Shown here one piece after another: positions 8,225 through 23,617 of a stretch of 25,297 nucleotides of DNA. The translations under genes and the position numbers were made by a program. Location: positions 1 to 25,297 of IMG/VR virus record IMGVR_UViG_3300043409_001340, one strand, 5' to 3'. The stretch is from a virus. Its lineage: Duplodnaviria > Caudoviricetes. The notes beneath the pieces were generated by a model. It did not search any database. It saw only the letters and a program-made list of their open reading frames with translations, and was not told the origin of the DNA. Each line of letters begins with the position of its first letter. The first letter of the stretch is position 1.

Positions 8225-9139
8225 GTGAATTCTATTGCTAAACACACAAAAATTGCAACAAACATAGCAGAAGCCGGCAAGAGATTAGCCGCCGCGGGCG
8301 TGGATGTATCACGTATTACAAAAGATGCTTTTCTCACAGCAAAAGCCAAGATAAATCCCATCCTTAAAAAAGCCGGCATTGGTGCAGGCTGGACATCAGG
8401 TGGGGCAGGCAGTTTTGATCCAGAACATCCGTATTCTGGAACACTAAGACAGGATTCTGGCGATGTGGATATCATGATTGACCCACAAGAGTTAGTTAAA
8501 AAATTCCCAGCAGATATAGCACAGTGGAATGCCGCATCAGCCAAACCCTTAGGCCCCAAAGCAATAGACAACGCCATGGCAGATCCAGCCAAAAAAGCTG
8601 GGTTGCAAATGAAAGCCAGCAAGGCAGCATTGGCTGCTTTTATGACACAAAATGGCTTACCAACGGATCCTGGCACATTGACAATGGAATATACTGCTGG
8701 TGGCAAACACTACTCGGTAGATTTAATCGTACGGCCACGGTCAGCCTGGATGCTACATACACACGATTTTAGTTTGGATCAAAATATGCGTGGTGGAGAT
8801 TTGTGGAACGACCTATATGCGGCACTGACCAAAGTGAGTAGTCCACAACAATTTACTGATCCCAAAACTGGTGATGTCAAGGGTAGTTTACAATTTAGTC
8901 CTGACAATGGACTGGTAGATAGAACAACTGGAAAGGTTGTGGCTATTGATAAAGATCAAATAGCAAAAATATTAATTGGGCCAGAAGCCAAAGCTCGTGA
9001 TATATCCAGTTTAACCGGTATCAAAAATGCCTTGCAAAAATATCCTAAAAAATGGGATGCAGTAAAACAGTTTTATCCAGTCCCGGTTCAAGAAGGAACA
9101 TCAGACTGGTTTAGAAGTATATTGGACAAAGTAAAATGA
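8225..9139 (+). CDS. Putative Pol-beta-superfamily nucleotidyltransferase
   Basis: GTG start with AGGGGA SD and GCTAAATA at 8196-8203. G62-S63 ... D80-x-D82 (AGSF...SGDVDIMID) plus a third Asp in YSVDLIV (D166). Confidence 0.6.
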   Translation: MNSIAKHTKIATNIAEAGKRLAAAGVDVSRITKDAFLTAKAKINPILKKAGIGAGWTSGGAGSFDPEHPYSGTLRQDSGDVDIMIDPQELVKKFPADIAQWNAASAKPLGPKAIDNAMADPAKKAGLQMKASKAALAAFMTQNGLPTDPGTLTMEYTAGGKHYSVDLIVRPRSAWMLHTHDFSLDQNMRGGDLWNDLYAALTKVSSPQQFTDPKTGDVKGSLQFSPDNGLVDRTTGKVVAIDKDQIAKILIGPEAKARDISSLTGIKNALQKYPKKWDAVKQFYPVPVQEGTSDWFRSILDKVK

Positions 9140-10992
9140 GATTATTTGAGATTTTTAACCAGTCGGATAAATTCCCACTACATACCGCCCCCAGGGTACT
9201 AACCGAAGGTATTACTCACGTTGAAGATTTGATTATTGACGATGGTGCCGCAGGTGCTGAACGAGCAGTTGCTGAGTTAAAAGGTCTGGGTAAAAATACC
9301 GATACAGTAACCGTTAAATGGGATGGATTTCCAGCAGTGGTGTTTGGTCGCGATGCCACAGGACAAATAGTATTTGTAGACAAACACATGTACGACAAAG
9401 TCTCCAAGGGCAAGATGGAGTTTATGAGCATTGCTGCCTATGACGAGCAACGTGGATCTAATCGCAATGATCTATGGGATAAAGAAGGTATCATACGCCC
9501 ACTGCTAGAGAAAATAGTACCCATGGTCAAGGATCAGTATTGGATGGGTGACTTAATGTGGTCACATACTCCCGCTACCAAAGATGGATTCTATGTCTTT
9601 AAACCCAATACTGTGGAATACAAAGTTAAAATTGATAGTCCACTTGGTGACAAAATTACCAAGAGTGCTGGTGGTATAGCAGTACATACCTTTATCAATG
9701 GGTTAGGTCAGGGCGATGTTCCGCTGGTGGGATTACGGGGGCTTAAAGAAAAAGCTGGTATCACTTTCCTAGTTGGAGAAATGACCGAGAAGCCCAAAGT
9801 TGTCGTTGATAAACGAGTGTTGGGTGAAGCTGACGCAGTAATTAGACAGCATAAAAAAGCAGTAACTAAATTCATGGCAGATGTAACTGCCATGAAGGGC
9901 AAGAGTATTATAACAGCAATGAGCCCGTTTATTACACGTATGTTGGAAGAGAATGATATAAGTGCAGACATTGTACCACGCTTTTTAAATTTCCTACGTG
10001 AACGATTCGCTGATAATAAAGTAGTAACAGCAAAGTTTTTGGGTGCAAACAATGATGGTTGGTTATATCAAGAAGATGGTGGTGCACCGGGATTATTGGG
10101 ATTGTGGAGTATGTGGGCCTCAGTAACAGATTTAAAACTACATATTAAACAACAGATAGACACACAGCAACAAAATAGTGAAATTATTGCCATCACAGAT
10201 GGTGCAACTGCACATGAAGGATATGTATTTGGTGCTGGTCGAGATAAATTAAAACTAATTGATCGACTGGGATTTAGTAAAGCAAACTTTGCTAAACATC
10301 GTGTATCCGATGACGAGGTAGCAGCCAAGCAGAAGATGCCATTGGCCGCATTTTGTTTCGGACGTATGAATCCACCCACTCTGGGTCATAATTTAGTTAT
10401 GGCCAAAACAGTAGCAACAGGTGGAAAGAACAGTTATATATTCTTAAGTAATAGTAACAAAGCACCGGATGATCCATTAGATCCAGCAACCAAAGCAGCC
10501 TTTATCAAAGCAATATATCCCAAGTATGCGGCCCGTATTGTGTCTGACCCAGTGCAAGGTCCTATATACGCAGCCAATTGGTTGTACGACAAAGGCTTCC
10601 GCAATATAGCTTTTATTGGTGGCAGTGACCGTTTGGGTAATAGTGCTGGCAGTATTGAAAAGTTATTAACTGGATGGAATAGTGGATCAGTTCGCACCAC
10701 AGACAATGCCCGTGGACCCACTGGACGTGAACACGTTCATCTGACATTTGTTAGCAGTGGTGACCGTGATCCTGATGCGGGTGGGTTAGCTGGGATTAGC
10801 GGGTCGCTAGCACGTAAATTGGCCACTGCTGGAGATGAGGCTGGCTTTCAGAAAGCCACAGGAGTAGGTCCAAACATTAAAGTGGGTGGCAAAACATTGT
10901 ATCAAGCCACACGTGATGGCATGGGTATTGCTGATAAACCAATCGCACCAGCATTACCAGTCAAGCCAGTCAAACCTGTAGCTAAAAAATAA
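9136..10992 (+). CDS. Two-domain protein: N-terminal ligase-like (KxDG) nucleotidyltransferase domain fused to a C-terminal HIGH-superfamily (cytidylyltransferase-like) domain
   Basis: TVKWDG (K61, motif I), WMGDLMW, HEGYV and KLIDR resemble ATP-dependent ligase motifs I/III/IV/V. The C-terminal FGRMNPPTLGH (from F408), GGSDR and ISGSLAR are HIGH-family motifs. Confidence 0.7.
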   Translation: MRLFEIFNQSDKFPLHTAPRVLTEGITHVEDLIIDDGAAGAERAVAELKGLGKNTDTVTVKWDGFPAVVFGRDATGQIVFVDKHMYDKVSKGKMEFMSIAAYDEQRGSNRNDLWDKEGIIRPLLEKIVPMVKDQYWMGDLMWSHTPATKDGFYVFKPNTVEYKVKIDSPLGDKITKSAGGIAVHTFINGLGQGDVPLVGLRGLKEKAGITFLVGEMTEKPKVVVDKRVLGEADAVIRQHKKAVTKFMADVTAMKGKSIITAMSPFITRMLEENDISADIVPRFLNFLRERFADNKVVTAKFLGANNDGWLYQEDGGAPGLLGLWSMWASVTDLKLHIKQQIDTQQQNSEIIAITDGATAHEGYVFGAGRDKLKLIDRLGFSKANFAKHRVSDDEVAAKQKMPLAAFCFGRMNPPTLGHNLVMAKTVATGGKNSYIFLSNSNKAPDDPLDPATKAAFIKAIYPKYAARIVSDPVQGPIYAANWLYDKGFRNIAFIGGSDRLGNSAGSIEKLLTGWNSGSVRTTDNARGPTGREHVHLTFVSSGDRDPDAGGLAGISGSLARKLATAGDEAGFQKATGVGPNIKVGGKTLYQATRDGMGIADKPIAPALPVKPVKPVAKK

Positions 10993-10993
10993 T

Positions 10994-11266
10994 ATGGAAG
11001 ACAAGTTAACAGTTAATGTACATTGTGCCGATTCTGCATTAACACCAGTATATCGTTTGTATATTAATTCTGATTTGATCACAGAACGAACTTTTATCTG
11101 GGATCATACTAAAACATATATTACTGAGAACTTGTTGTTAAATTTACCAGCAGGAAAACATAAAGTTTGGATCAGCGCAGGCAGACAAGAGATGTTTCAA
11201 TTGCGTGATGCAACATTGAACCAAATACCGATTACACTAGATTCAATCGGTAATTTCACTAAATAA
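10994..11266 (+). CDS. Hypothetical protein (90 aa)
   Basis: Starts 1 nt after the upstream stop. Contains PVYRLYINSDLITERTFIW. No known motif. Confidence 0.75.
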   Translation: MEDKLTVNVHCADSALTPVYRLYINSDLITERTFIWDHTKTYITENLLLNLPAGKHKVWISAGRQEMFQLRDATLNQIPITLDSIGNFTK

Positions 11267-11283
11267 AGATAAAGGATACTCCA

Positions 11284-13440
11284 ATGAAGTTTGCCGATTT
11301 TCATAACACAAAACTAGCAGAAGCATCTAAAACTAGAAATCCAACTAGGGATTATTTAAGAAACAATCCTGTTAGTCCAGATCAGATGGCAAAGCCGGTT
11401 AAACAAATGTCCCAACCTGTAATACCGCAAGATCAAATAGCTAAAGCATGGACACAGAATAAGTCTAAAGCACAGATGTTTATTAAGAATGTGCCGGTTG
11501 CAATTATGCCTACATCTAAACTTCCACCAAATTCAGTTGATAGTGTAAAACAAGAAGCCGGCAAAAGAGATCAAACTTCTTATAGTCCTGAAAAATTTGC
11601 TAACGGGTTGGCAGCGATACAAGCACCAAAGCAGGGTAAGGGTGAAATTTATATATTTGATCAGAGTAGTATGGCAAATTATGGCCCGTATTCTAGTCAA
11701 ATAACTCCCGCTTTATCAGAGTATCTACAACAATTAGGAATAGACTCGGCTATAGCCAAATTATATATTAAGAAAGTACCAACTCCGTTTATACCGGCAT
11801 CGGTATTTGGTATAGAGGGTAAACGAATACAAACTTCTTGGGGAGATCAAGCAGTTGATTCAGGAGCCTTTATTACTCAAGAGGCAAATGGTCATACTTA
11901 TTGTTGCAACCCGGATTCACAGGGGTTACCTATCGGATATATACCTGCACAGCAAGGTGTGGCGGAAGCTTCAAACACGATGCAAAGATATGGTCAACTA
12001 ATACTTAAACGTGCTAAGGCGAAACGAGAGGCCGAAGCAAGGGAAAAGGCTGAGAAAGAAAAGGCTGAGCAGGAAAAGGCTGATAAAGAAAAGAAGCCGG
12101 GTGTGGCGGAGGCCCGCGATCCAAAAACTGAATATGATCGCAACTTATTAGTGTCATGGATACAAAATTATATACCGCACAGTGATGCCGGTAAACAAGT
12201 TCAACGATATTTTAATACTCCTGACACATTACTACCTCAACTATCCGAGGTAGTTGGATTGATAGATGAAATATTTTATGAATCTTTAGAAAATGGCAGC
12301 GAAGGGGATGTTCTGCCTGATGAGAAAAAAGACTTAAGATTTTTCTACCAGGCGGTTAAACAAGCTAAAAAGCAAGGTGTGGCGGAAGGCTACTGGGATG
12401 ATGCAGTTAAAGCAATCGAGAAAGCAAGCAAAGAGCGTGCCGGCAAACCGTTTGAAAAGAACCCAGCAAGTCATGACAAGAACGGTGTCTATCTAGGCGA
12501 TAAAGATTTAGCAGGAAACCCAGTACCAAAGCATAAAGAACCGGGAGTAGCGGAAGCCAAAGCTGATCCACTTGGTTCTTGGATAGCACATAAAAACGGT
12601 ACAGAGGCAAGAAAATTCAAAACACGTGAAGGTGCTAAAAAATATGTAGCATCACATGAGGGATTTACTGTTAGTTCGTCAGAAGCATTTCACGATACCT
12701 ATCGTAAGAAAAAAGTACAAGAAGTAAAGAAATTTCGCACTACTTATGGCTGGGCAGGCGGTAGTAAAGAACCTCGATCGGCCCACGCCAAACAAGTTGC
12801 AGCCAAGCGTAAAGAATATGAAAAGGGCCTGGGAAAATTTGAACCCACGGATGATATGGTTGGCACTGCCAAGATGATTAAAGATATCGCAATGAGCGAT
12901 GCATCACCTGAACATAAAAAAGCCGCGATTGATGCGTTGAATAAGAAAGGTGTGGCGGAAGAATACAATCCAGAATATGATGACGAAGCAGGTATGGCAG
13001 ACAACAATCTTAGCACCCTGCGCCGTGCCGTGGACGGACTAGATGACTTGATTGACACTGGTGATAATTTGCCTGAATGGTGTCAAGAAAAGATTGCTGT
13101 GGCTAAATCTATGTTAGTCACTGTCTGGAACTATATGGAATCCGAAGATGACGTTATGGCGGAAGGTGAAAAATGGATACAAAAGGCAGTGAATCCCAAG
13201 ACCAAAGGCGATTTACACAAAGCATTACATGTACCACAAGATGAAACGATTCCTAAATCCAGAATAGCCCAAGCTATACATAGCACAGATCCACATCTAC
13301 GCCATATGGCACAATTTGCTAAAAATGTAGCTAAAGAAGATGCTGGTGGCATGGGTACAGGCAGTGTGGCAACAAGTATGGGTGCTGGTAACGGATTTGC
13401 AAATGGCGGTCCGGGTACTATAACACGTAGAAGAAAATAA
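11284..13440 (+). CDS. Modular 718-aa protein made of unrelated segments joined by GVAE|x linkers; putative capsid-internal polyprotein
   Basis: ACTAAATA at 11258-11265 and AAGGA SD. N-terminus MKFADFHNTKLAE|A. Linkers: QGVAEA, PGVAEA, QGVAEG, PGVAEA, KGVAEE, VMAEG. Gly-rich C-terminus. Confidence 0.85.
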   Translation: MKFADFHNTKLAEASKTRNPTRDYLRNNPVSPDQMAKPVKQMSQPVIPQDQIAKAWTQNKSKAQMFIKNVPVAIMPTSKLPPNSVDSVKQEAGKRDQTSYSPEKFANGLAAIQAPKQGKGEIYIFDQSSMANYGPYSSQITPALSEYLQQLGIDSAIAKLYIKKVPTPFIPASVFGIEGKRIQTSWGDQAVDSGAFITQEANGHTYCCNPDSQGLPIGYIPAQQGVAEASNTMQRYGQLILKRAKAKREAEAREKAEKEKAEQEKADKEKKPGVAEARDPKTEYDRNLLVSWIQNYIPHSDAGKQVQRYFNTPDTLLPQLSEVVGLIDEIFYESLENGSEGDVLPDEKKDLRFFYQAVKQAKKQGVAEGYWDDAVKAIEKASKERAGKPFEKNPASHDKNGVYLGDKDLAGNPVPKHKEPGVAEAKADPLGSWIAHKNGTEARKFKTREGAKKYVASHEGFTVSSSEAFHDTYRKKKVQEVKKFRTTYGWAGGSKEPRSAHAKQVAAKRKEYEKGLGKFEPTDDMVGTAKMIKDIAMSDASPEHKKAAIDALNKKGVAEEYNPEYDDEAGMADNNLSTLRRAVDGLDDLIDTGDNLPEWCQEKIAVAKSMLVTVWNYMESEDDVMAEGEKWIQKAVNPKTKGDLHKALHVPQDETIPKSRIAQAIHSTDPHLRHMAQFAKNVAKEDAGGMGTGSVATSMGAGNGFANGGPGTITRRRK

Positions 13441-14311
13441 AATGAAATCATTTAGAAAACACCTGTCAGAAGTTGCCGCAGTTAAACCCAGAAAAGCACC
13501 AAAGAAGTTTCCGGGATATTGGGCTGGAAAAGACTCAGCTAAAGCGTCACGTAGTAAAATGGTTGGTGGTGAGAGTATAACCTCTGCACCATCCGGACAG
13601 GATTATCTAAAAGAGTTTGAAAACTTCCAGGAGCCTGCTGTGGTAACGGGCTTATTAAATGAATTGTCAGGTTATAAGGCTAATAATCTATATAAAAATT
13701 TAAGTTCACACAAAAGATACAATGTTTATGTAAGCAAACAGAAGTTTAAAAATTTATACTTTATTGCGGTTGCTGAAAATCCAAGAACATTGCAAGCAAC
13801 ATTTAAAGCCAAAGGTCAGAATCCAGAAGAAGCAGTTAATAATTTAAAATTAGAAATTGATAAGGAAATTGATGTAGCTACTAAAGTTAGCGGATACGCT
13901 ACATTGGATTTTAATGTTGAGTTTGCAAAGGATATATTAGAACTAAGCACAGATACTTTCTATGCCAAAATTAACCCTGGTCCACAGTTAGTGTTGGCGG
14001 GTGCCGAGATAATGGAATATCCTGAAATAATGCGAGACGAGGGGTTTAAACCCAGCACTATTAGAACTTATAAAGGTGGTGAAGGTACTACTCTACTTCC
14101 GGGTGTTCCGTTAAGTTCCAAAGCGGCAATGACTGCAAATCTTATTGCCAATGGCAGATATGTTTTGGGAGATGAAACAATAGATAAAGATGGCAATAGA
14201 GTATTTAATTTAACTTTTGATAGTGTGGTGCAAGCATCCAACGATAAAATGCGAATGAGAGCGCCAGCGGTTACTATAGGTACTAATAGATCTCAAGGTG
14301 TGACAGAAGCG
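11951..14311 (+). repeat. Dispersed in-frame direct repeats, core GGTGTGGCGGA (Gly-Val-Ala-Glu)
   Basis: Cores start at 11956, 12100, 12376 and 12949 (identical GGTGTGGCGGA), 12544 (GGAGTAGCGGAA), 13153 (GTTATGGCGGAA) and 14297 (GGTGTGACAGAA). 11951-11968 and 12371-12388 are an identical 18-mer, AGCAAGGTGTGGCGGAAG. Confidence 0.9.
12043..12093 (+). repeat. 15-nt period tandem repeat encoding (EKAxx)n
   Basis: GAAAAGGCTGA at 12043, 12058 and 12073, with a partial copy at 12088. Confidence 0.8.
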
Positions 14312-14884
14312 CCGATTGAAATGGATCCAGCAGAGCCAATGAATCCCATGATCCACAATCATCAAGGTGCCAATCCTGCCAAACTACAATACCGTATGGC
14401 CAGAGCCGCCGCACAATTTAAAGAGTTAGCAAAACGAGCTGAAAATGGCAGTGCCATTGGTTGGGAAAGTATTGCTCGCCAATTTGGTGAACTAGCAATG
14501 AATGTTGAACAAATTAAACATGGATTGGATGAACTTGCCGCTATACGTAAAAAAGGTGGAAGAGGTTCCAGAGGGATTGATCCCAACATTGGTGAAGCGG
14601 CTTCAGTAGTTCCTGGTGCTACAGCGCCAGGTGCGGTGCCAGACCCAATTGAAGTTAAAAAGGCACAAATTCAGAAAACCCAGAGTGGCAAATTGGCTTC
14701 TGTTGTTGGTGCCAATCCGGCTGCGTTGGTGAAATCATTGGCTGCGGCTGGTAACGGAACATCTACTCCAGCAACAGCACAAGCATTGTCACCAGCAATT
14801 GACGACATAGCTAATTTATTAAAAGATCCCACATTGGGCCCACAGTTAATTGCTTTATTAGCCAAAGCTAAACAAATTAAATAA
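13442..14884 (+). CDS. Modular 480-aa protein, putative capsid-internal protein
   Basis: N-terminus MKSFRKHLSE|V resembles the T4 capsid-targeting sequence MKTYQEFIAE. Internal candidate sites LLNE|L, QGVTE|A and IGE|A. Ala/Pro-rich C-terminal part. Confidence 0.85.
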   Translation: MKSFRKHLSEVAAVKPRKAPKKFPGYWAGKDSAKASRSKMVGGESITSAPSGQDYLKEFENFQEPAVVTGLLNELSGYKANNLYKNLSSHKRYNVYVSKQKFKNLYFIAVAENPRTLQATFKAKGQNPEEAVNNLKLEIDKEIDVATKVSGYATLDFNVEFAKDILELSTDTFYAKINPGPQLVLAGAEIMEYPEIMRDEGFKPSTIRTYKGGEGTTLLPGVPLSSKAAMTANLIANGRYVLGDETIDKDGNRVFNLTFDSVVQASNDKMRMRAPAVTIGTNRSQGVTEAPIEMDPAEPMNPMIHNHQGANPAKLQYRMARAAAQFKELAKRAENGSAIGWESIARQFGELAMNVEQIKHGLDELAAIRKKGGRGSRGIDPNIGEAASVVPGATAPGAVPDPIEVKKAQIQKTQSGKLASVVGANPAALVKSLAAAGNGTSTPATAQALSPAIDDIANLLKDPTLGPQLIALLAKAKQIK

Positions 14885-14899
14885 AGCTATGTTGTGGTA

Positions 14900-14907
14900 G
14901 TTAAATA
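14900..14907 (+). promoter_or_regulatory. Late-type promoter (GTTAAATA) upstream of the terminase operon
   Basis: TAAATACTT core 5 nt before the ATG at 14913, with no SD. Confidence 0.55.
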
Positions 14908-14912
14908 CTTCT

Positions 14913-15125
14913 ATGAATGAATATGATCCATTACAGGAACTCAAAGTCCTAGCTGGAATAACTAATAAACCAAATTGGCAACCATACAGCATGGGTAGCA
15001 ATGTCAGCATTACTGGACAAGAAAAAGCCGACCTACAACGTAAACACGATATACGACCAGGTACTCCAGAATGGTTTAAACTTTGGTTTGCCAAACCATA
15101 CCTGACAGGCGAGAAACCCATATAA
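14913..15125 (+). CDS. Small hypothetical protein (70 aa) translationally coupled to terminase
   Basis: Contains LQELKVLAGI and PGTPEWFKLWF motifs. Its stop TAA overlaps the terminase ATG (TAATG at 15123-15127). Confidence 0.75.
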   Translation: MNEYDPLQELKVLAGITNKPNWQPYSMGSNVSITGQEKADLQRKHDIRPGTPEWFKLWFAKPYLTGEKPI

Positions 15126-16690
15126 TGTCATCACAAGACGGATCGTTAATAAAACGACCAAATCGGCAAGAGAACTATACCGAACAACAAATGCGCGAGT
15201 TTGCCCAGTGTGCTGACCCAGTAACTGGCCCATTATATTTCTTAACTCACTTCTTCTATATACAACATCCCATGCAAGGCAAACTGTTGTATCAGCCTTA
15301 CGGATTCCAAGTCAGACTGATTGCAACTTATCATAACTATCGATTTAACATTAATATGTTACCTCGGCAAATGGGCAAAACAGCAACAGCCGCTGGATAC
15401 TTGTTATGGTATGCCATGTTTGTCCCCGACGCAACTATATTAGTGGCGGCACACAAGTATAGTGGCGCACAGGAAATTATGCAACGAGTACGTTATGCAT
15501 ACGAAGATTGTCCAGATCATATACGTGCTGGTGTTACCAGTTACAACAAAGGCAGTATAGAGTTTGAAAATGGTAGCCGTATAGTTAGTCAAGCAACCAC
15601 AGAAAATACTGGTCGTGGTATGTCCATAACATTGCTGTATTGCGATGAGTTTAGTTTTGTGCGACCAACGATTGCTCGTGAGTTTTGGACCAGTATTAGC
15701 CCCACATTGGCAACTGGTGGTAAAGCCATTATAACCAGTACTCCAAACAGTGACGAAGATCAGTTTGCACAACTTTGGCAAGGTGCCAATCAGTGCTTAG
15801 ATGAGTTCGGCAATGAAACTGATGTTGGACGAAACGGATTTAAATCATTCAGAGCATACTGGAATGAACATCCAGATCGTGATGAGAACTGGGCAAGTGA
15901 GCAACGAGGACAATTGGGTGAAGAACGCTTCCGTCGTGAAATGGATTGCGAATTTATTCGCGATGATGAAACACTGATTGATCCACTGAAACTAGCACGT
16001 ATGGAAGGTGTTAGTCCCATTAACAAGCAAGGACAGGTACGCTGGTATAAGGAGATAGATCCCAAATCCACTTATATAGTGGCATTAGATCCCAGCATTG
16101 GTACTGGTGGTGATCCTGCTGCAATAGAAGTATTTGAATTGCCCAGTTGTGAACAAGTAGCAGAATGGTGTCATAATAAAACACCGGTGGAACAACAAAT
16201 TAAAATTTTGGCAGAAATTATAACTCTTATTGCAGAAACAGTTAAAACCAACGAGCAAATATACTACAGTTTAGAAAATAACACAATTGGTGAAGCAGGA
16301 TTGGTTAGTTTACGTGAGTATGGCGAGGAAAACATACCGGGCACAATGTTAAGCGAGCCGCATAGACTGGGTAATGTACGAAAACATCGCAAAGGGTTTT
16401 CAACCACACACTCAAGCAAACTAAGTGCCTGTGCTAAACTTAAGAATTTTGTAGAAACAGACAAACTAGTGATCAAAAGTAAACCACTGATATCAGAGCT
16501 TAAAAACTTCATTTCCAGTGGTACCACATACAAAGCACTAACTGGGCAAACAGATGATTTAGTAATGGCCACTGTATTAGCAGTTAGAATGATAGCATTT
16601 TTACAGAGTTACGACGCCAATCTAGATGATAAAATGCGTAATGGCAGTGACGAACCCACACGTATGCCAATGCCCTTTATAATAATGTAA
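15125..16690 (+). CDS. terL: Terminase large subunit (T4 gp17-like)
   Basis: Walker A LPRQMGKT, Walker B LLYCDEF, motif III ITSTPN, FRREMDCEF, and nuclease acidic residues in VALDPS and TDDLVMA. The likely start is the ATG at 15125, not 15083. Confidence 0.93.
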   Translation: MSSQDGSLIKRPNRQENYTEQQMREFAQCADPVTGPLYFLTHFFYIQHPMQGKLLYQPYGFQVRLIATYHNYRFNINMLPRQMGKTATAAGYLLWYAMFVPDATILVAAHKYSGAQEIMQRVRYAYEDCPDHIRAGVTSYNKGSIEFENGSRIVSQATTENTGRGMSITLLYCDEFSFVRPTIAREFWTSISPTLATGGKAIITSTPNSDEDQFAQLWQGANQCLDEFGNETDVGRNGFKSFRAYWNEHPDRDENWASEQRGQLGEERFRREMDCEFIRDDETLIDPLKLARMEGVSPINKQGQVRWYKEIDPKSTYIVALDPSIGTGGDPAAIEVFELPSCEQVAEWCHNKTPVEQQIKILAEIITLIAETVKTNEQIYYSLENNTIGEAGLVSLREYGEENIPGTMLSEPHRLGNVRKHRKGFSTTHSSKLSACAKLKNFVETDKLVIKSKPLISELKNFISSGTTYKALTGQTDDLVMATVLAVRMIAFLQSYDANLDDKMRNGSDEPTRMPMPFIIM

Positions 16691-16708: not shown

Positions 16709-18676
16709 ATGAAACCTATAGAACAAATCAGTACCGACCTTTTTGAAAAGCTCAGAGCTCGTTCTGAAGATATCAACATGGGCGATGAAGAAGCCAACGA
16801 TACAGTAGACCCTGCAGAAGCCAGGTTTTTTAACTTTGACTACAAACAACGCAAAGAAAGTTTTGGTAACATTACTATTACTGTTGCTGACAAGAAGGGG
16901 TTGAAAGTATTTTATAGTAAAAATATAACAAATAATCCAGACCTTGATTCCAAGGATTGGTATGCATTTTTAAAAGGATTAAGGAATTTTGCTATGAGAA
17001 ACTTACTAACTTTTGACGCTAGAGACATTGGCAAATCCAGTCTAGCATTGCGCGATATCAAGACATTTGCTAAAACGTATTCCAAAGATTCCACAGTTAA
17101 AGATATTGCTGAAAGCAAGCTATACGGGTCAACTAAAAGCAGTTATCAGAAAATGGGTCCGGTTAAACTAATTGTCAAACACAGCGCACAAGTTGATGAG
17201 AACATCCATGGTGCTCGTAGCAGAAATATTGAAAAGATTTTCATTGAAAACAATGAAGGTGAACGTTTTAAATTAGAAAGCAACAATCTATTGGCTGGCA
17301 GAGTTATTGCTCGCCATGTCAGCAATGGTGGTGCTCACAATGATGCATTTTCCAAACATGTAAATGAATCCATTAACGAATTAAAAGATTTGCGTTACTT
17401 TGTGATGTCCAGCAAACGTAGACAATTTGAAGATGCTACTACGACACAGATGGTGGAATCAGCAGTAGAGTATTACAACACATTACGTGAAACACTACAT
17501 CGTCTTAAAGGACAACGTGGCTATACCAAATATATGGAAAGTTTTGAAGAAAGCTCATCTGCCGAACAGTTAGATGAGATGACTGAAGATCTCAAAGAAC
17601 GCTTTATCCAAAAGTATTTTGATCAAAGAATGGAACAAGCGATCCCACACATTGCCAAAGCATATGCTGCCACAATCCGTGAAGCCGCACAAGTAGCCAA
17701 ACAAATTGCACAATTTGAAACCGGTACCGTCAGATTTGGATTAAATGAATCTGATCGTGACATGTTGGGCTTGTTGGAGTTTACCGACAAGAATGCATTT
17801 ATGATCAAGATGTTGGAAAACATCAGTACTAAATTATCTGAATCTGATAAAGTAATAGCCAAGTTTGCTAGACATGTTATGGAAAACTGGGATACTGCCA
17901 ACAAAACAAATCGCGAGATGGCCGGCAAATTGGTTCGTAGCTATGTTAAAGAAATCAAAGACATCGTAAAAAAAAACCATAACATAGTTGAACAAGAAGT
18001 ATCAGAAGCCCCTTCAGATACTGGCCATTTACGTTTGATACTGCAACAAGCATTGCGAGCTAAGAAATTAGGTAAGCCATTGGCTAGTGTGATGCGTCCA
18101 GCTGATATCAATTTATTAATTATGGCGCAAGGTGCTGGTTCGTTATCCGACTTACTTAAACAACCCGTAGTAAAGGAATCTGAGTACCAATTAGACGAAG
18201 GTACCTGGGAGTTACCACTCAGTGAAAAACAAGTAGACAAATTTATTAAATTAATGGCTTCACCATTGGAACTAGGCCCAGATTCTGACAATGCTACCAA
18301 TGCATTGGGTGACTTATTTGGTGATGATGAGTTATTTGATGCATTGGCATCCAAAGCAGACCACCAGCCAGACTTTGATGCAAGACCATTAATTATAAAC
18401 AGACTGTTGCAACTTGCCGCCAAACCACAAAGTATGAAAGCAGACGATGATGAATTGGCAAATATGGCCAATTTATTGAACCAACTTAAAACTTCTGATG
18501 CTGGAAAAACTTATGTTAGTAAAATTGATCTAATATTGAAAAAATATCCTCAAATTAAATCACCAGAACCTGCTACTCCGGCACCAGTAGCACCGCCTGC
18601 TCCAGTAGCACCACCGGCACCAGTAGCGCCTGCTCCAGTAGCACCACCGGCACCAGTAGCACCACCTGCAGCCTAA
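16709..18676 (+). CDS. Large hypothetical late protein (655 aa), probably virion/head-associated
   Basis: Follows a late promoter next to terminase. Several (I/L/V)xE|(S/A/G) sites (DIAE|S, IRE|A, LNE|S, VSE|A, VKE|S, LDE|G). PAPVAP repeat tail. Confidence 0.85.
   Translation: MKPIEQISTDLFEKLRARSEDINMGDEEANDTVDPAEARFFNFDYKQRKESFGNITITVADKKGLKVFYSKNITNNPDLDSKDWYAFLKGLRNFAMRNLLTFDARDIGKSSLALRDIKTFAKTYSKDSTVKDIAESKLYGSTKSSYQKMGPVKLIVKHSAQVDENIHGARSRNIEKIFIENNEGERFKLESNNLLAGRVIARHVSNGGAHNDAFSKHVNESINELKDLRYFVMSSKRRQFEDATTTQMVESAVEYYNTLRETLHRLKGQRGYTKYMESFEESSSAEQLDEMTEDLKERFIQKYFDQRMEQAIPHIAKAYAATIREAAQVAKQIAQFETGTVRFGLNESDRDMLGLLEFTDKNAFMIKMLENISTKLSESDKVIAKFARHVMENWDTANKTNREMAGKLVRSYVKEIKDIVKKNHNIVEQEVSEAPSDTGHLRLILQQALRAKKLGKPLASVMRPADINLLIMAQGAGSLSDLLKQPVVKESEYQLDEGTWELPLSEKQVDKFIKLMASPLELGPDSDNATNALGDLFGDDELFDALASKADHQPDFDARPLIINRLLQLAAKPQSMKADDDELANMANLLNQLKTSDAGKTYVSKIDLILKKYPQIKSPEPATPAPVAPPAPVAPPAPVAPAPVAPPAPVAPPAA
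18578..18670 (+). repeat. Tandem repeats encoding (PAPVAP)n, including a perfect 33-nt tandem duplication
   Basis: GCCTGCTCCAGTAGCACCACCGGCACCAGTAGC at both 18595-18627 and 18628-18660. Five APVAP units in the protein. Confidence 0.9.
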
Positions 18677-21169: not shown

Positions 21170-22340
21170 TATACAGTCTCCCACTAACTTTTACTGTAGT
21201 CAGAAATTTTGGTGGTTGACTGTTGATATTAGTAAAATTCAAACTCTAAGTTGTTGTGCGGCAACTCCAGCTAAAATTAATTTATCATGGTTGCGCGAGA
21301 ATCCAGGCAAACTATTTAATACACCAGAACTACAACATGAGCGTAAGTTAATGTTGTCAGATGTCAAAGTAGATAGTTGCTCAGCTACATGCTGGAATGC
21401 CGAACAACAAGGATTGACAAGTCGTAGGCTAAGTTCAGAAAGCCAACTACGTACACATACTGACATTGATGCATCGCCTCGTATATTGCACATTATCATT
21501 GGTAATGATTGTAATATGACTTGTGTATATTGTTGCAAACAATATAGCAGTGCTTGGACGCAAGATATTCTAACTCATGGCTCTTATGTGGGAGTGGATA
21601 CCCAAGATGATCGATTTACTTTAAATAATACTGATCGAGTGTTGTTAAAACTTAGTCAGAAAGATATTAGCAATTCAGACAATACTCAATTACTATTTGC
21701 TGAGATCAATAGACTTGCGGCTAGTTCTAACTTGGAAGAAATAACTATAACTGGTGGAGAACCTTTTCTTTACTTGGGACTGAGAAATCTAGTAAGAGCG
21801 ATCCCATCACATATTAAAGTTAATATTTGGTCAGGGCTAGGAGTTGACACTGCTCGGTTTACGAGAGAATTATCTTTGTTACCACGGCAAGTTAATGTAT
21901 GTATTAGTGCAGAGAGTACAGATAAACTTTATGAATTTATAAGATATGGAAATACCTGGGACAGATTACAGCGTAATATTGCAGTATTAACAGAGCAACA
22001 AGTAACATATTCATTTTATGCTACCATAAGCAATCTTACATTAAGCGGGCTTCCTAACTTTATTAATTGGGCTGGCGATACTCCTGTGATATATTCACCA
22101 TGTACTGATCCGGAGTTTTTATCAATCCATGTATTGGATGATGAATCTAAAGAAAGAGTATTTAACTTATTGGATAAATTTCCACCATCAGTGCAAAGTA
22201 TGATAACTACTGCTATGCCAAATATCCCATCTGTAAAACAAAGATTAAATTTTAAGAATTATTTAACAACATTTGCTCAACGACGTTCTTTAGAACTAAC
22301 TATGTTTCCTCAATCGCTAATTAACTGGGCAACGAAGTGA
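21144..22340 (+). CDS. Radical SAM protein with N-terminal Cys-rich (twitch/SPASM-like) region
   Basis: CxxxCxxC (CNMTCVYC) and ITGGEPF. N-terminal FYC...SCC...CSATCW. The likely start is the ATG at 21144 (GAGG SD); the track start is 21063. Confidence 0.85.
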   Translation: MQTTKKTNNIQSPTNFYCSQKFWWLTVDISKIQTLSCCAATPAKINLSWLRENPGKLFNTPELQHERKLMLSDVKVDSCSATCWNAEQQGLTSRRLSSESQLRTHTDIDASPRILHIIIGNDCNMTCVYCCKQYSSAWTQDILTHGSYVGVDTQDDRFTLNNTDRVLLKLSQKDISNSDNTQLLFAEINRLAASSNLEEITITGGEPFLYLGLRNLVRAIPSHIKVNIWSGLGVDTARFTRELSLLPRQVNVCISAESTDKLYEFIRYGNTWDRLQRNIAVLTEQQVTYSFYATISNLTLSGLPNFINWAGDTPVIYSPCTDPEFLSIHVLDDESKERVFNLLDKFPPSVQSMITTAMPNIPSVKQRLNFKNYLTTFAQRRSLELTMFPQSLINWATK

Positions 22341-23617
22341 ACAAATACTTCCCAATAAAAACCGATACTGCATGTCAACTCAAATGGACCTGGAGCACAA
22401 TATTCTTAAATGATGGCACTACAGCATCTTGCCATCGTGTGGGTAGACATCCTATACCAATTGACAATTTTGACAAATTTCATAACACAGAAGAGAAGAT
22501 ACGACAACGGGAAAGTATGTTACGTGGAGAATGGCCACAACCATTGGAGTATATGCATGATGATGAGGGATGTAGATACTGCGAAAAAATTGAAAAAAGT
22601 GGTGGACATAGCGACAGACAGCACCATTTAACAATACCAAATTTATCTCCCAAGGAATTGGAAGTAACTCCCAATGCAGTGATTGTAACTCCAAAAATAC
22701 TTGAAGTTTTTATTAATAATACATGCAATTTATCCTGCACTTATTGTAATGCTAGTAATAGTTCTCAAATTGAACGTGAGAATAACAAATTTGGTAATTT
22801 TAATAAAAATGGCGTAACTATACCTATCAAGACAATTGATCGTAATTTAAATCAACAATATATTGAAAAGTTGTTTACGTGGCTTGAAAATAACTCAAAT
22901 GAATTACGAAGATTACATATATTGGGTGGCGAACCTTTATATCAGAAAGAATTTTATAGATGTGTGGATTTCTTTAAAACTCATCCCAATAGAGAATTAG
23001 AATTAAATCTAGTAACCAACCTAATGCTTGCACCTGCTAAATTTCAGTTATTTTTGCAACAGGTGAAACAAATGATAATTCAACGATGTATCAAGCGATT
23101 TGATATTACTGTTAGTTTAGACTGTTGGGGGGATGAACAGGAATATGCTAGATCAGGAATTAAATTAGATACTATTGAAAAAAATATGCAAACATTGCTT
23201 GATGAAAAATGGGTATATCTTAACATTAATAGTACATTAACTCCGCTGACTATTCGTACCTTTCCTGATCTTATAAAAAAGATAAATGAATGGAGAACAG
23301 CTAGGTCAATTCATCATTATTTTCAAACAGTGTTTAACCCCTCGTATCATAATCCTGAAATTTTTGGTGGAGAAGTTTGGCGTACTGATTTTGAATTAGC
23401 ATTATCTCTAATGCAACAAACTAATCCACAGGAAATTACGGCATTTAATTATCTCAATGGTATTTGGTCTCAATTACAAAGTACTTGCGAAAATACAGAA
23501 AAGATAGTACAATTGATTACACATCTAACTGAGTTAGATAGACGCAGAAATACAAACTGGCAACAAGTGTTTCCATGGCTAATCAAATATGAGGAATTAT
23601 GTGGTATAACAAAGTAA
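22337..23617 (+). CDS. Radical SAM protein with N-terminal Cys-rich (twitch/SPASM-like) region
   Basis: CNLSCTYC, ILGGEPL, VTN and VSLD. N-terminal ACQLKW...ASCHR...GCRYCEK. GTGA overlap with the upstream gene. Confidence 0.88.
   Translation: MNKYFPIKTDTACQLKWTWSTIFLNDGTTASCHRVGRHPIPIDNFDKFHNTEEKIRQRESMLRGEWPQPLEYMHDDEGCRYCEKIEKSGGHSDRQHHLTIPNLSPKELEVTPNAVIVTPKILEVFINNTCNLSCTYCNASNSSQIERENNKFGNFNKNGVTIPIKTIDRNLNQQYIEKLFTWLENNSNELRRLHILGGEPLYQKEFYRCVDFFKTHPNRELELNLVTNLMLAPAKFQLFLQQVKQMIIQRCIKRFDITVSLDCWGDEQEYARSGIKLDTIEKNMQTLLDEKWVYLNINSTLTPLTIRTFPDLIKKINEWRTARSIHHYFQTVFNPSYHNPEIFGGEVWRTDFELALSLMQQTNPQEITAFNYLNGIWSQLQSTCENTEKIVQLITHLTELDRRRNTNWQQVFPWLIKYEELCGITK

Follow-up and report, generated by a model that had tools for sequence, protein, structure and literature searches.

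Exchangeable in-frame protein modules joined by a standard linker in a gene of a large T4-related lake phage

The DNA considered here, referred to throughout as the window, is a stretch of 25,297 nucleotides that constitutes a complete virus record of 25.3 kilobases (kb) in IMG/VR (IMGVR_UViG_3300043409_001340) and represents a fragment of a large, uncultured, T4-related jumbo phage from a lake. The runs holding this stretch are labelled as freshwater or lake metagenomes, and the relatives whose terminases are 60-67% identical have sizes of 316-354 kb. The element in question is a cassette polyprotein gene, in which a series of modules is joined in frame by short linkers encoding Gly-Val-Ala-Glu (GVAE) or a similar peptide, together with a second modular gene that follows it. 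The features of these two genes are listed below (aa, amino acids; bp, base pairs).

11284 to 13440, plus strand: cassette polyprotein gene, 718 aa; both ends are common to 13 orthologues, and the internal modules differ among them.
11284 to 11322, plus strand: 13-aa leader ending L-A-E, likely a capsid-targeting propeptide by analogy with T4 internal proteins; common to all 13 orthologues.
11323 to 11411, plus strand: constant 30-aa piece, the right end of which is a linker-less swap point; relatives diverge sharply past 11411.
11412 to 11955, plus strand: module M1, 180 aa, a self-contained domain; also found in other scaffold genes and as stand-alone genes.
11956 to 11967, plus strand: linker 1, GVAE, consensus codons.
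11968 to 12099, plus strand: module M2, basic and coiled, 44 aa; present in 5 of 13 orthologues.
12100 to 12111, plus strand: linker 2, GVAE; left end of a 276-bp deletion in other lake samples, which joins 12099 to 12376 with 11 shared letters.
12112 to 12375, plus strand: module M3, 88 aa; elsewhere behind a native M-T-E site in proteins of other context, with loose ends at 12107 and 12390.
12376 to 12387, plus strand: linker 3, GVAE, full consensus, followed by GGC.
12388 to 12543, plus strand: module M4, 52 aa; present in 7 of 13 orthologues.
12544 to 12555, plus strand: linker 4, GVAE, decayed codons GGA GTA GCG.
12556 to 12948, plus strand: module M5, 131 aa, three fused pieces with an internal V-Q-E site; 12874-12944 is missing from several relatives.
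12949 to 12960, plus strand: linker 5, GVAE.
12961 to 13152, plus strand: module M6, acidic, 64 aa; widespread in phages and also found after native hydrophobic-x-Glu sites.
13153 to 13164, plus strand: linker 6, variant V-M-A-E; QGVTE in the relative L133.
13165 to 13440, plus strand: constant C-terminal module M7 and tail; present in 13 of 13 orthologues.
13442 to 14884, plus strand: second modular gene, 480 aa, with a leader ending L-S-E (residue 10); a mobile module extends from a native L-N-E (aa 74) to linker 7.
14297 to 14308, plus strand: linker 7, GVTE.

A preliminary description of this DNA had divided the 718-aa open reading frame (ORF) by six GVAE-like linkers into mutually unrelated modules. 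Re-derivation of the coordinates returned the same linker cores (11956, 12100, 12376, 12544, 12949, and 13153) and the same spacings of 48, 92, 56, 135, and 68 codons, the seventh linker (QGVTE, followed by Ala) was located at 14297 in the next ORF as described, and no pair of modules produced a BLASTP match at E <= 1. All six sites stand, with the qualification that the sixth reads DVMAE rather than GVAE and that the fourth is written GGA GTA GCG. The N-terminal region of about 220 aa, previously treated as one unit, is actually composed of the 13-aa leader, the constant 30-aa piece, and an exchangeable cassette of 180 aa; no linker is present at the left junction of this cassette (11411). 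The leaders of the two genes end in L-A-E at residue 13 and L-S-E at residue 10, and in the cassette polyprotein gene a single leader heads seven or more modules. Homologues of the second modular gene match its residues 72-289 and 285-385 in many other proteins. The gene downstream of the terminase contains one more site, at 17996, which is decayed and accompanied by an additional insert of 200 bp. Contigs from two RNA runs cover parts of the polyprotein gene, which does not constitute evidence of transcription.

The full linker encodes Gln-Gly-Val-Ala-Glu-Gly and corresponds to about 15-20 bp of fixed DNA, with a majority motif extending from about -5 to +14 and carrying AAGG at both its start and its end. 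Within the window, exactly four copies are written GGT GTG GCG, i.e., four of the five GVAE peptides, against 0.84% per copy expected from the codon usage of the window (p = 2e-8), and the copies at 11956 and 12376 have an exact 18-mer in common, both as originally reported; the 11-mer of the linker, allowing up to two mismatches, matches 13 times, compared with 2.9 +/- 1.9 in shuffled sequences, of which 0 of 100 reach 13. The proposal that the linker is conserved as DNA beyond codon usage was borne out among 154 loci that were fetched by protein homology as a precaution against circularity: after the exclusion of near-identical relatives, GGT GTG GCG encodes 35 of the 54 GVAE peptides, compared with an expected 0.62% (p = 1e-63). 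In a set of 80 terminase loci, the same codons occur at 18 of 26 GVAE sites, 10 of the 26 being contributed by two near-identical relatives. The bias in the 154 loci extends to the flanking codons (CAA in 31 of 32 Gln, GGC in 21 of 26 Gly, and G-ending codons two positions upstream), and Val is encoded by GTG in 48 of the 54 copies, with ATG as the commonest variant.

The linker is confined to one reading frame and to few places. The GVAE frame of long ORFs holds 265 of 267 distinct exact 11-mers, and among 26 large records, eight of which were reached via the DNA pattern, 17 contain the 11-mer, on one strand in each, the reversed control giving two matches in total. Exact copies number 0-11 per record and are clustered, with 1-7 in a few places in near-complete genomes, and approximately 1400 IMG/VR stretches are estimated to carry the 16-mer. 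No copy is present in phage PA5oct, and cultured phages overall yielded nothing convincing, the E-values being at chance level. A doubled linker, GVAE-GVAE, was observed in L332 (G009:167001-187000, minus strand), an outcome expected if the AAGG copies at the two ends of the motif slip or recombine with each other.

The polyprotein gene is an array of exchangeable modules, which related phages swap at one standard linker. The 13 orthologues with the same N-terminus contain 13 different arrays drawn from up to 36 module types, and eight module pairs occur in inverted order, so that a fixed, collinear order does not hold in related phages; the window's own modules keep their relative order among these orthologues. 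Two relatives with 96-98% DNA identity align with the window save inside the polyprotein gene, where identity begins and ends at linkers. M1, M3, M4, and part of M5 were also found in proteins with other N-termini. Breakpoints were collected from 165 linker-bearing genes, which provided 184 internal alignment ends, 62 of them at linkers in both partners before filtering; 79 ends were dropped, as the proteins were still similar past the end, and of the 105 true breaks that remained, 64 coincide with a linker in both partners and 24 in only one, 17 being away from linkers altogether, so that 88 lie at a linker, where 11% of positions would be expected at random (the pairs are not independent). 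Array variants were read from assembled metagenome contigs, which in eight runs break or fork at 11411, 11950, 12107-12110, 12376-12390, and 12945. Additionally, contigs from two other lake samples (X6 and X12) lack exactly the 276 bp between linker 2 and linker 3, the joint having 11 letters in common, and in one of these samples the deleted module also occurs in another context. The gain, loss, and reordering that had been proposed, as well as movement between genes, with breakpoints at the linker, are accordingly seen in orthologue arrays, in proteins with other N-termini, in 88 of 105 breaks, and in contig deletions.

The relationship between linker-bearing modules and their linker-less counterparts provides information on how the joints may arise. 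The downstream module is also found without a linker in 35 module families, and in 76 of 114 linker-less pairs the residue in register with the linker Glu is itself Glu. Averaged by family over these 35, Glu occurs in register at 0.64 and hydrophobic-x-Glu at 0.49, compared with 0.01-0.21 for neighbouring codons, and the DNA identity between linker and linker-less pairs leaps from 0.16 to 0.76 precisely at the Glu codon; close pairs have a few bases around GAAG in common at the junction. The upstream edge, judged from 125 pairs in 42 families, is blurrier, and Glu is over-represented there one or two codons ahead of the linker. In a library clustered at 50%, 42 relatives of M1 were found; several are stand-alone genes (about 200 residues) that open with a short leader, the last residues of which are hydrophobic-x-Glu, and stop where the linker would begin. 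These stand-alone genes and the Glu in register together suggest that the linker replaces either the leader and stop of a formerly independent gene or an older, unconserved joint; for M3, a word-based search found no stand-alone homologue of similar length. A derivation of the linker from a tRNA end or a non-coding master was considered and rejected, no match longer than 10 bases being present outside the cargo genes of the 343-kb relative G003, its tRNAs included. Older polyproteins may have been jointed by ordinary protease sites with unrelated DNA, and one joint sequence could then have taken over, as its ends (AAGG ... GAAGG) match the Glu codon of a native site over 3-7 bases and would permit capture.

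The simplest reading of the exchange, we infer, is general recombination on 11-18 shared bases, with selection filtering for frame and an intact Glu. Two linker copies sharing 11-18 bases would allow the general recombination system of the phage (UvsX, UvsY, and gp32, the genes of which are all within the window) to exchange cassettes in frame, and the more cassettes carry the linker, the more partners each would have, a network effect that may keep the DNA uniform with no need of a dedicated enzyme. Partners with a shared flank hardly ever have deviant bases of the linker core in common (1 of 33 and 3 of 54, in a set that includes copies picked by the DNA pattern and hence favours the consensus, which counts against this argument), and flank variants are mostly common to partners (105 of 127 and 44 of 50), so that joins apparently form between consensus copies and decay afterwards. 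Scans for promoters and terminators over 10900-15200 remained at or below shuffle level, and no recurring inverted repeat was found at the linkers, which are direct repeats inside an ORF. The tyrosine recombinase family PF00589 was found in none of five near-complete relatives (control, 14 of 14), although a host enzyme could still serve. The label of an integron-like system is therefore not retained in its strict sense, as neither this recombinase in the five relatives nor an inverted-repeat site at the linkers was found.

The competing explanation that survives best retains the same cassettes and cleavage but takes the linker DNA to be a sequence-specific trigger, namely a nickase or recombinase site, a Chi-like hot spot, or a two-tier G-quadruplex. 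One sequence is dominant across phages whose terminases are merely 60-67% identical, the downstream junction is sharp to one codon, and the most unusual silent choices (GTG and GCG), together with the following Gly, complete four GG pairs spaced 3-1-2 (linker positions 0-13), a pattern found in 51 of 103 linkers not picked by DNA, compared with about 40 occurrences per strand in 342 kb. ViennaRNA predicts a quadruplex at two of the seven window sites, and GAG is commoner when the fourth GG is otherwise absent (12 of 85 vs 9 of 178, p = 0.015; unpicked loci, p = 0.054). This GAG excess is nevertheless explained by the carry-over of a module's native Glu codon, as directly seen for M3, and silent positions that are not G are equally conserved. 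Furthermore, tyrosine recombinase and reverse transcriptase are found in none of the five near-complete relatives (serine recombinases and nucleases were not searched), no non-coding master copy of more than 10 bases was found in the 343-kb relative, and 1-7 clustered copies in near-complete genomes are unlike a genome-wide Chi site. A trigger of this type is considered possible, if doubtful. An extended version, according to which a clade of 300-520-kb aquatic phages operates an integron-like system within coding DNA, using the 15-20-bp joint both as a protease site that frees each cargo protein in the capsid and as a signal that is actively recognised for recombination (perhaps as a minimal G-quadruplex or as an unknown nickase target), and capturing and trading stand-alone genes so that many hundreds of injected anti-defence proteins make up an open pool, is doubtful as well and is offered as a speculative proposal.

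At the protein level, the linker is likely cut after Glu by a head protease of the T4 gp21 type, which would release the modules as separate capsid cargo. According to the available text of two sources, T4 cuts after Glu, for example at ITE and LTE sites in Alt (PMC5694885), and propeptides of 10-19 residues target proteins, foreign fusions included, to the T4 head (PMC9026906). A protease of this type (PF03420) is found above the cut-off in four of five near-complete relatives, matches the T4 protease chain 5JBL (E = 2e-15), and is encoded in a portal-core-protease-scaffold-capsid cluster; in the relative G007, its gene is at L321:16744-17379 on the minus strand. Hydrophobic-x-Glu sites occur about 7 times per 100 residues in the scaffolds, 3-5 times in the core protein, and 0-0.4 times in long tail-region proteins, and in one capsid protein the first 42 residues include four such sites, ahead of the region aligning to mature T4 gp23 (from residue 11). 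The 139 short modules, which are rich in Lys and Arg (17% vs 9%), contain 43 internal [ILVM]xE sites compared with 77 +/- 8 in shuffles (z = -4.3), and seven control motifs ending in D, Q, K, R, N, S, or T are not depleted (z >= 0.2); unlike the short modules, a whole phage proteome is enriched in [ILVM]xE. Three independent sequence tests indirectly back the protease role, namely the Glu in register, the avoidance of sites in short modules, and the stand-alone genes of M1; cleavage and packaging are inferred.

The pool of modules that would be released in this manner is diverse. The 293 linker-bounded modules, which have a median length of 79 aa and come from about 340 loci, fall into 244 clusters, including 208 singletons, indicating that the pool is far from fully sampled. 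Neither the ORF at 11284 nor its modules match Pfam or PHROG, which short, divergent proteins can escape, and of the 150 longest among 235 module representatives, 15 have a Pfam match at E <= 0.001 and four pass the cut-off. The few annotated modules comprise a cytidine deaminase, weak GNAT, PGDYG, and Tat-signal-like matches, DUF6321, and Gp88, and PADLOC, which covers defence rather than counter-defence systems, returned one match in 48 proteins, a deaminase. M6 is the sole window module that matches cultured phages, weakly, in four Synechococcus phage records. For M1, an alignment-based AlphaFold model predicts a confident domain of 179 aa (pLDDT 93.5), a single-sequence model having been discarded as unusable (pLDDT 36). 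Foldseek found no PDB match to this predicted fold at E <= 0.001, the best VIA Z was 2.8, and one unnamed viral match at E = 1e-5 was obtained together with weak PGDYG-family rows; a sequence search gave no PDB match, and Atlas scores were below 0.9. In L222:8818-9609, L086:452-886, P0035, and P0059, modules start with a twin-arginine-signal-like or hydrophobic stretch directly after the linker, hinting that some cargo may target the membrane or periplasm. The released, mostly basic mini-proteins might be injected alongside the DNA in the manner of T4 internal proteins, and some of them might counter host defence; the case for such an anti-defence role is the analogy with T4 internal proteins.

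Taken together, a reading in which modules are swapped at one standard linker, the linker is likely cut by a gp21-type protease, and one leader would carry many proteins into the capsid is considered reasonably probable. Several observations weigh against it. No protease gene is present in the window's own 25-kb fragment, the 96 modules longer than 100 aa show no shortage of internal sites (z = +1.8), and M1, M3, M5, and M6 each contain one or two such sites, so that the site pattern alone fails to predict cutting. The effector function named in the preliminary description did not find direct support, as no window module matches a named family and only the four of 150 representatives mentioned above pass the Pfam cut-off. 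On the DNA side, the 17 breaks away from any linker include the window's own junction at 11411, which indicates that capture is also possible via chance microhomology, and T4 recombination is described, in the available part of PMC2839356, as needing patches of less than 50 bp; 11-18 bp might not suffice at a useful rate.

An alternative to the cargo part of this reading accepts the shuffling and holds that the product is not delivered: it would be either chopped core or filler that leaves the head, like T4 gp22, gp67, and gp68, or an uncut multidomain protein with GVAE as a spacer. T4 core proteins are cut at the same type of motif and their fragments exit, as described in the available text of PMC5694885, several modules are short, of low complexity, or provided with internal sites, and no known effector family occurs among the window modules. 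A filler would nonetheless have no need for 244 clusters among 293 modules, its short modules would not be expected to avoid internal sites in which scaffolds are rich, and both enzyme-like modules (cytidine deaminase, GNAT) and M1, a confidently predicted domain of 179 aa that is also a stand-alone gene, speak against it; this alternative is unlikely. Less probable still, and very unlikely in itself, is an explanation in which silent-site conservation serves RNA or translation, through an internal start at GTG or ribosome pausing between domains. The prevalence of GTG at Val, with ATG as its commonest variant, and the purine-rich linker would fit this, but the breakpoints are located at the linker, there is no Shine-Dalgarno-like consensus upstream of GTG, GAG, which would create GGAGG, is below background (4 of 54 vs 19%), and native partners have Glu in register, not a start codon. 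Finally, the idea that the different arrays are assembly chimeras arising at a short repeat, which owes its appeal to the data being all metagenome contigs, has negligible probability, as the 11-18-bp repeat is shorter than usual assembler words, a single run (X1) has the window's array in full, over all 30 bins, with few differences, identical alternative junctions turn up in runs from separate studies and in independent records, and the linkers bear private mutations.

The arrangement favoured here, of exchangeable and probably cleaved modules, can be compared with several known systems. It differs from diversity-generating retroelements, retrons, and group II introns by the lack of reverse transcriptase (PF00078 in none of five near-complete relatives, although divergent enzymes might escape), and from Chi-type hot spots by its clustering in 0-11 copies per record and in one frame in 265 of 267 cases. 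Integrons maintain an open cassette pool, and their arrays gain, lose, and reorder units at a repeated site by means of the IntI integrase and inverted-repeat attC sites; the open pool and the repeated site are similar here, whereas no IntI-type integrase and no attC inverted repeat were found, and the modules are in frame, without a start or stop of their own. In the tail fibre and gp38 adhesin genes of T-even phages, variable segments are reportedly exchanged in frame at conserved motifs within a structural gene, but these are said to be homologous loops in fixed order within one folded protein, while the modules considered here are unrelated domains in free order and are predicted to be cut apart.

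The internal proteins IPI, IPII, IPIII, and Alt of T4 are alike in having a short leader that ends in hydrophobic-x-Glu, with a gp21-type protease also in the present clade, and in being small, mostly basic, and highly variable products, foreign fusions to the leader being packaged and delivered in T4 (available text of PMC9026906 and PMC5694885). They differ in that each small gene has one leader, whereas here one leader precedes a chain of up to nine or more modules, and in that the joint here is fixed at the DNA level and is the swap point; the stand-alone forms of M1 fit the T4 rule of one leader per small protein, and the polyprotein does not. In the PeSL cassettes of the T4-type phages RB49 and phi1, a short conserved linker likewise focuses the insertion, deletion, and replacement of small ORFans, no dedicated recombinase having been found, and the authors liken PeSLs to integrons and note analogous elements at T-even IP loci (PMC2839356, as far as its available text extends). 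PeSLs are described there as an intergenic promoter and stem-loop around whole genes (PMC2839356), in contrast to the present linker, which is coding, in frame (265 of 267 sites), 15-20 bp long, free of promoter or stem-loop, and joins modules inside one ORF. In phiKZ and SPN3US, many head and inner-body proteins are similarly cut after Glu, at several sites each, and their products injected; the motif is S/A/G-x-E or A-x-E, cleavage removes propeptides, and a DNA-level joint is not described in the available portions of PMC5694885, PMC9026906, and PMC13282480, the last of which, a 2026 review, has 0 occurrences of the word polyprotein in its available text. A literature search, with most subscription journals and supplements outside its coverage, found no published description of this linker or of such polyproteins. 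At the protein level, the system would thus operate as T4 internal proteins do, and at the DNA level as PeSL cassettes do, and it falls outside the definitions of both and of integrons.

The genes identified in the remainder of the window comprise terminase, spanins, holin, DnaJ, ClpA, UvsX, and UvsY, in addition to three virion-protein families; no Rfam family was found in the window. Two of these neighbours are listed below.

15122 to 16690, plus strand: terminase large subunit, serving as context.
16709 to 18676, plus strand: virion protein gene; its site at 17996 is decayed (E-V-S-E), and it carries an additional 200-bp insert that is lacking in relatives, which show the consensus linker.

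The insert (17996-18197) is in frame, and two RNA-run contigs, like the relatives, have instead a consensus linker without it. The nearest cultured matches of this gene are from Pseudomonas phage PA5oct and its kin (about 32% identity), and the PA5oct homologue, gp278, is annotated in its record as detected by electrospray ionization tandem mass spectrometry (ESI-MS/MS).

Other differences and features were recorded alongside. Compared with window positions 14884-14899, the 96%-identical relative L133 has two additional genes (L133:8506-9745), the products of which are a protein of 245 aa whose leader ends L-L-E and a WPPGEAAIA-type repeat protein of 171 aa, and it carries an additional 270-aa gene (L133:14602-15411) between the single-stranded DNA-binding and UvsX genes, relative to the 19930-19879 region of the window. 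The window gene at 9136-10992 combines DUF6267 with a cytidylyltransferase-like part and has a short Glu-ended leader, and transferases related to it carry the module found after linker 7. Pro-Val-Lys and Pro-Ala-Pro-Val repeats end two genes (10950-10985 and 18560-18676), with copy numbers that differ among relatives, and two neighbouring radical-SAM genes lie between UvsX and UvsY (21225-23617). In the related phage G003, a permuted transfer-messenger RNA (L218:10048-10526) adjoins a large tRNA cluster.

If true, the favoured reading would show how a single targeting leader allows large phages to fill the capsid with a variable repertoire of proteins, and one sequence would serve both DNA exchange and protein processing. 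It would also supply a sequence rule, by which each linker-bounded module is a candidate injected protein with defined ends, and the 244 clusters, nearly all unannotated, would represent a ready, delimited library for counter-defence screens. The arrays would further provide a clear natural case, below the level of the gene, of the linker-mediated modular evolution of Botstein and Campbell.

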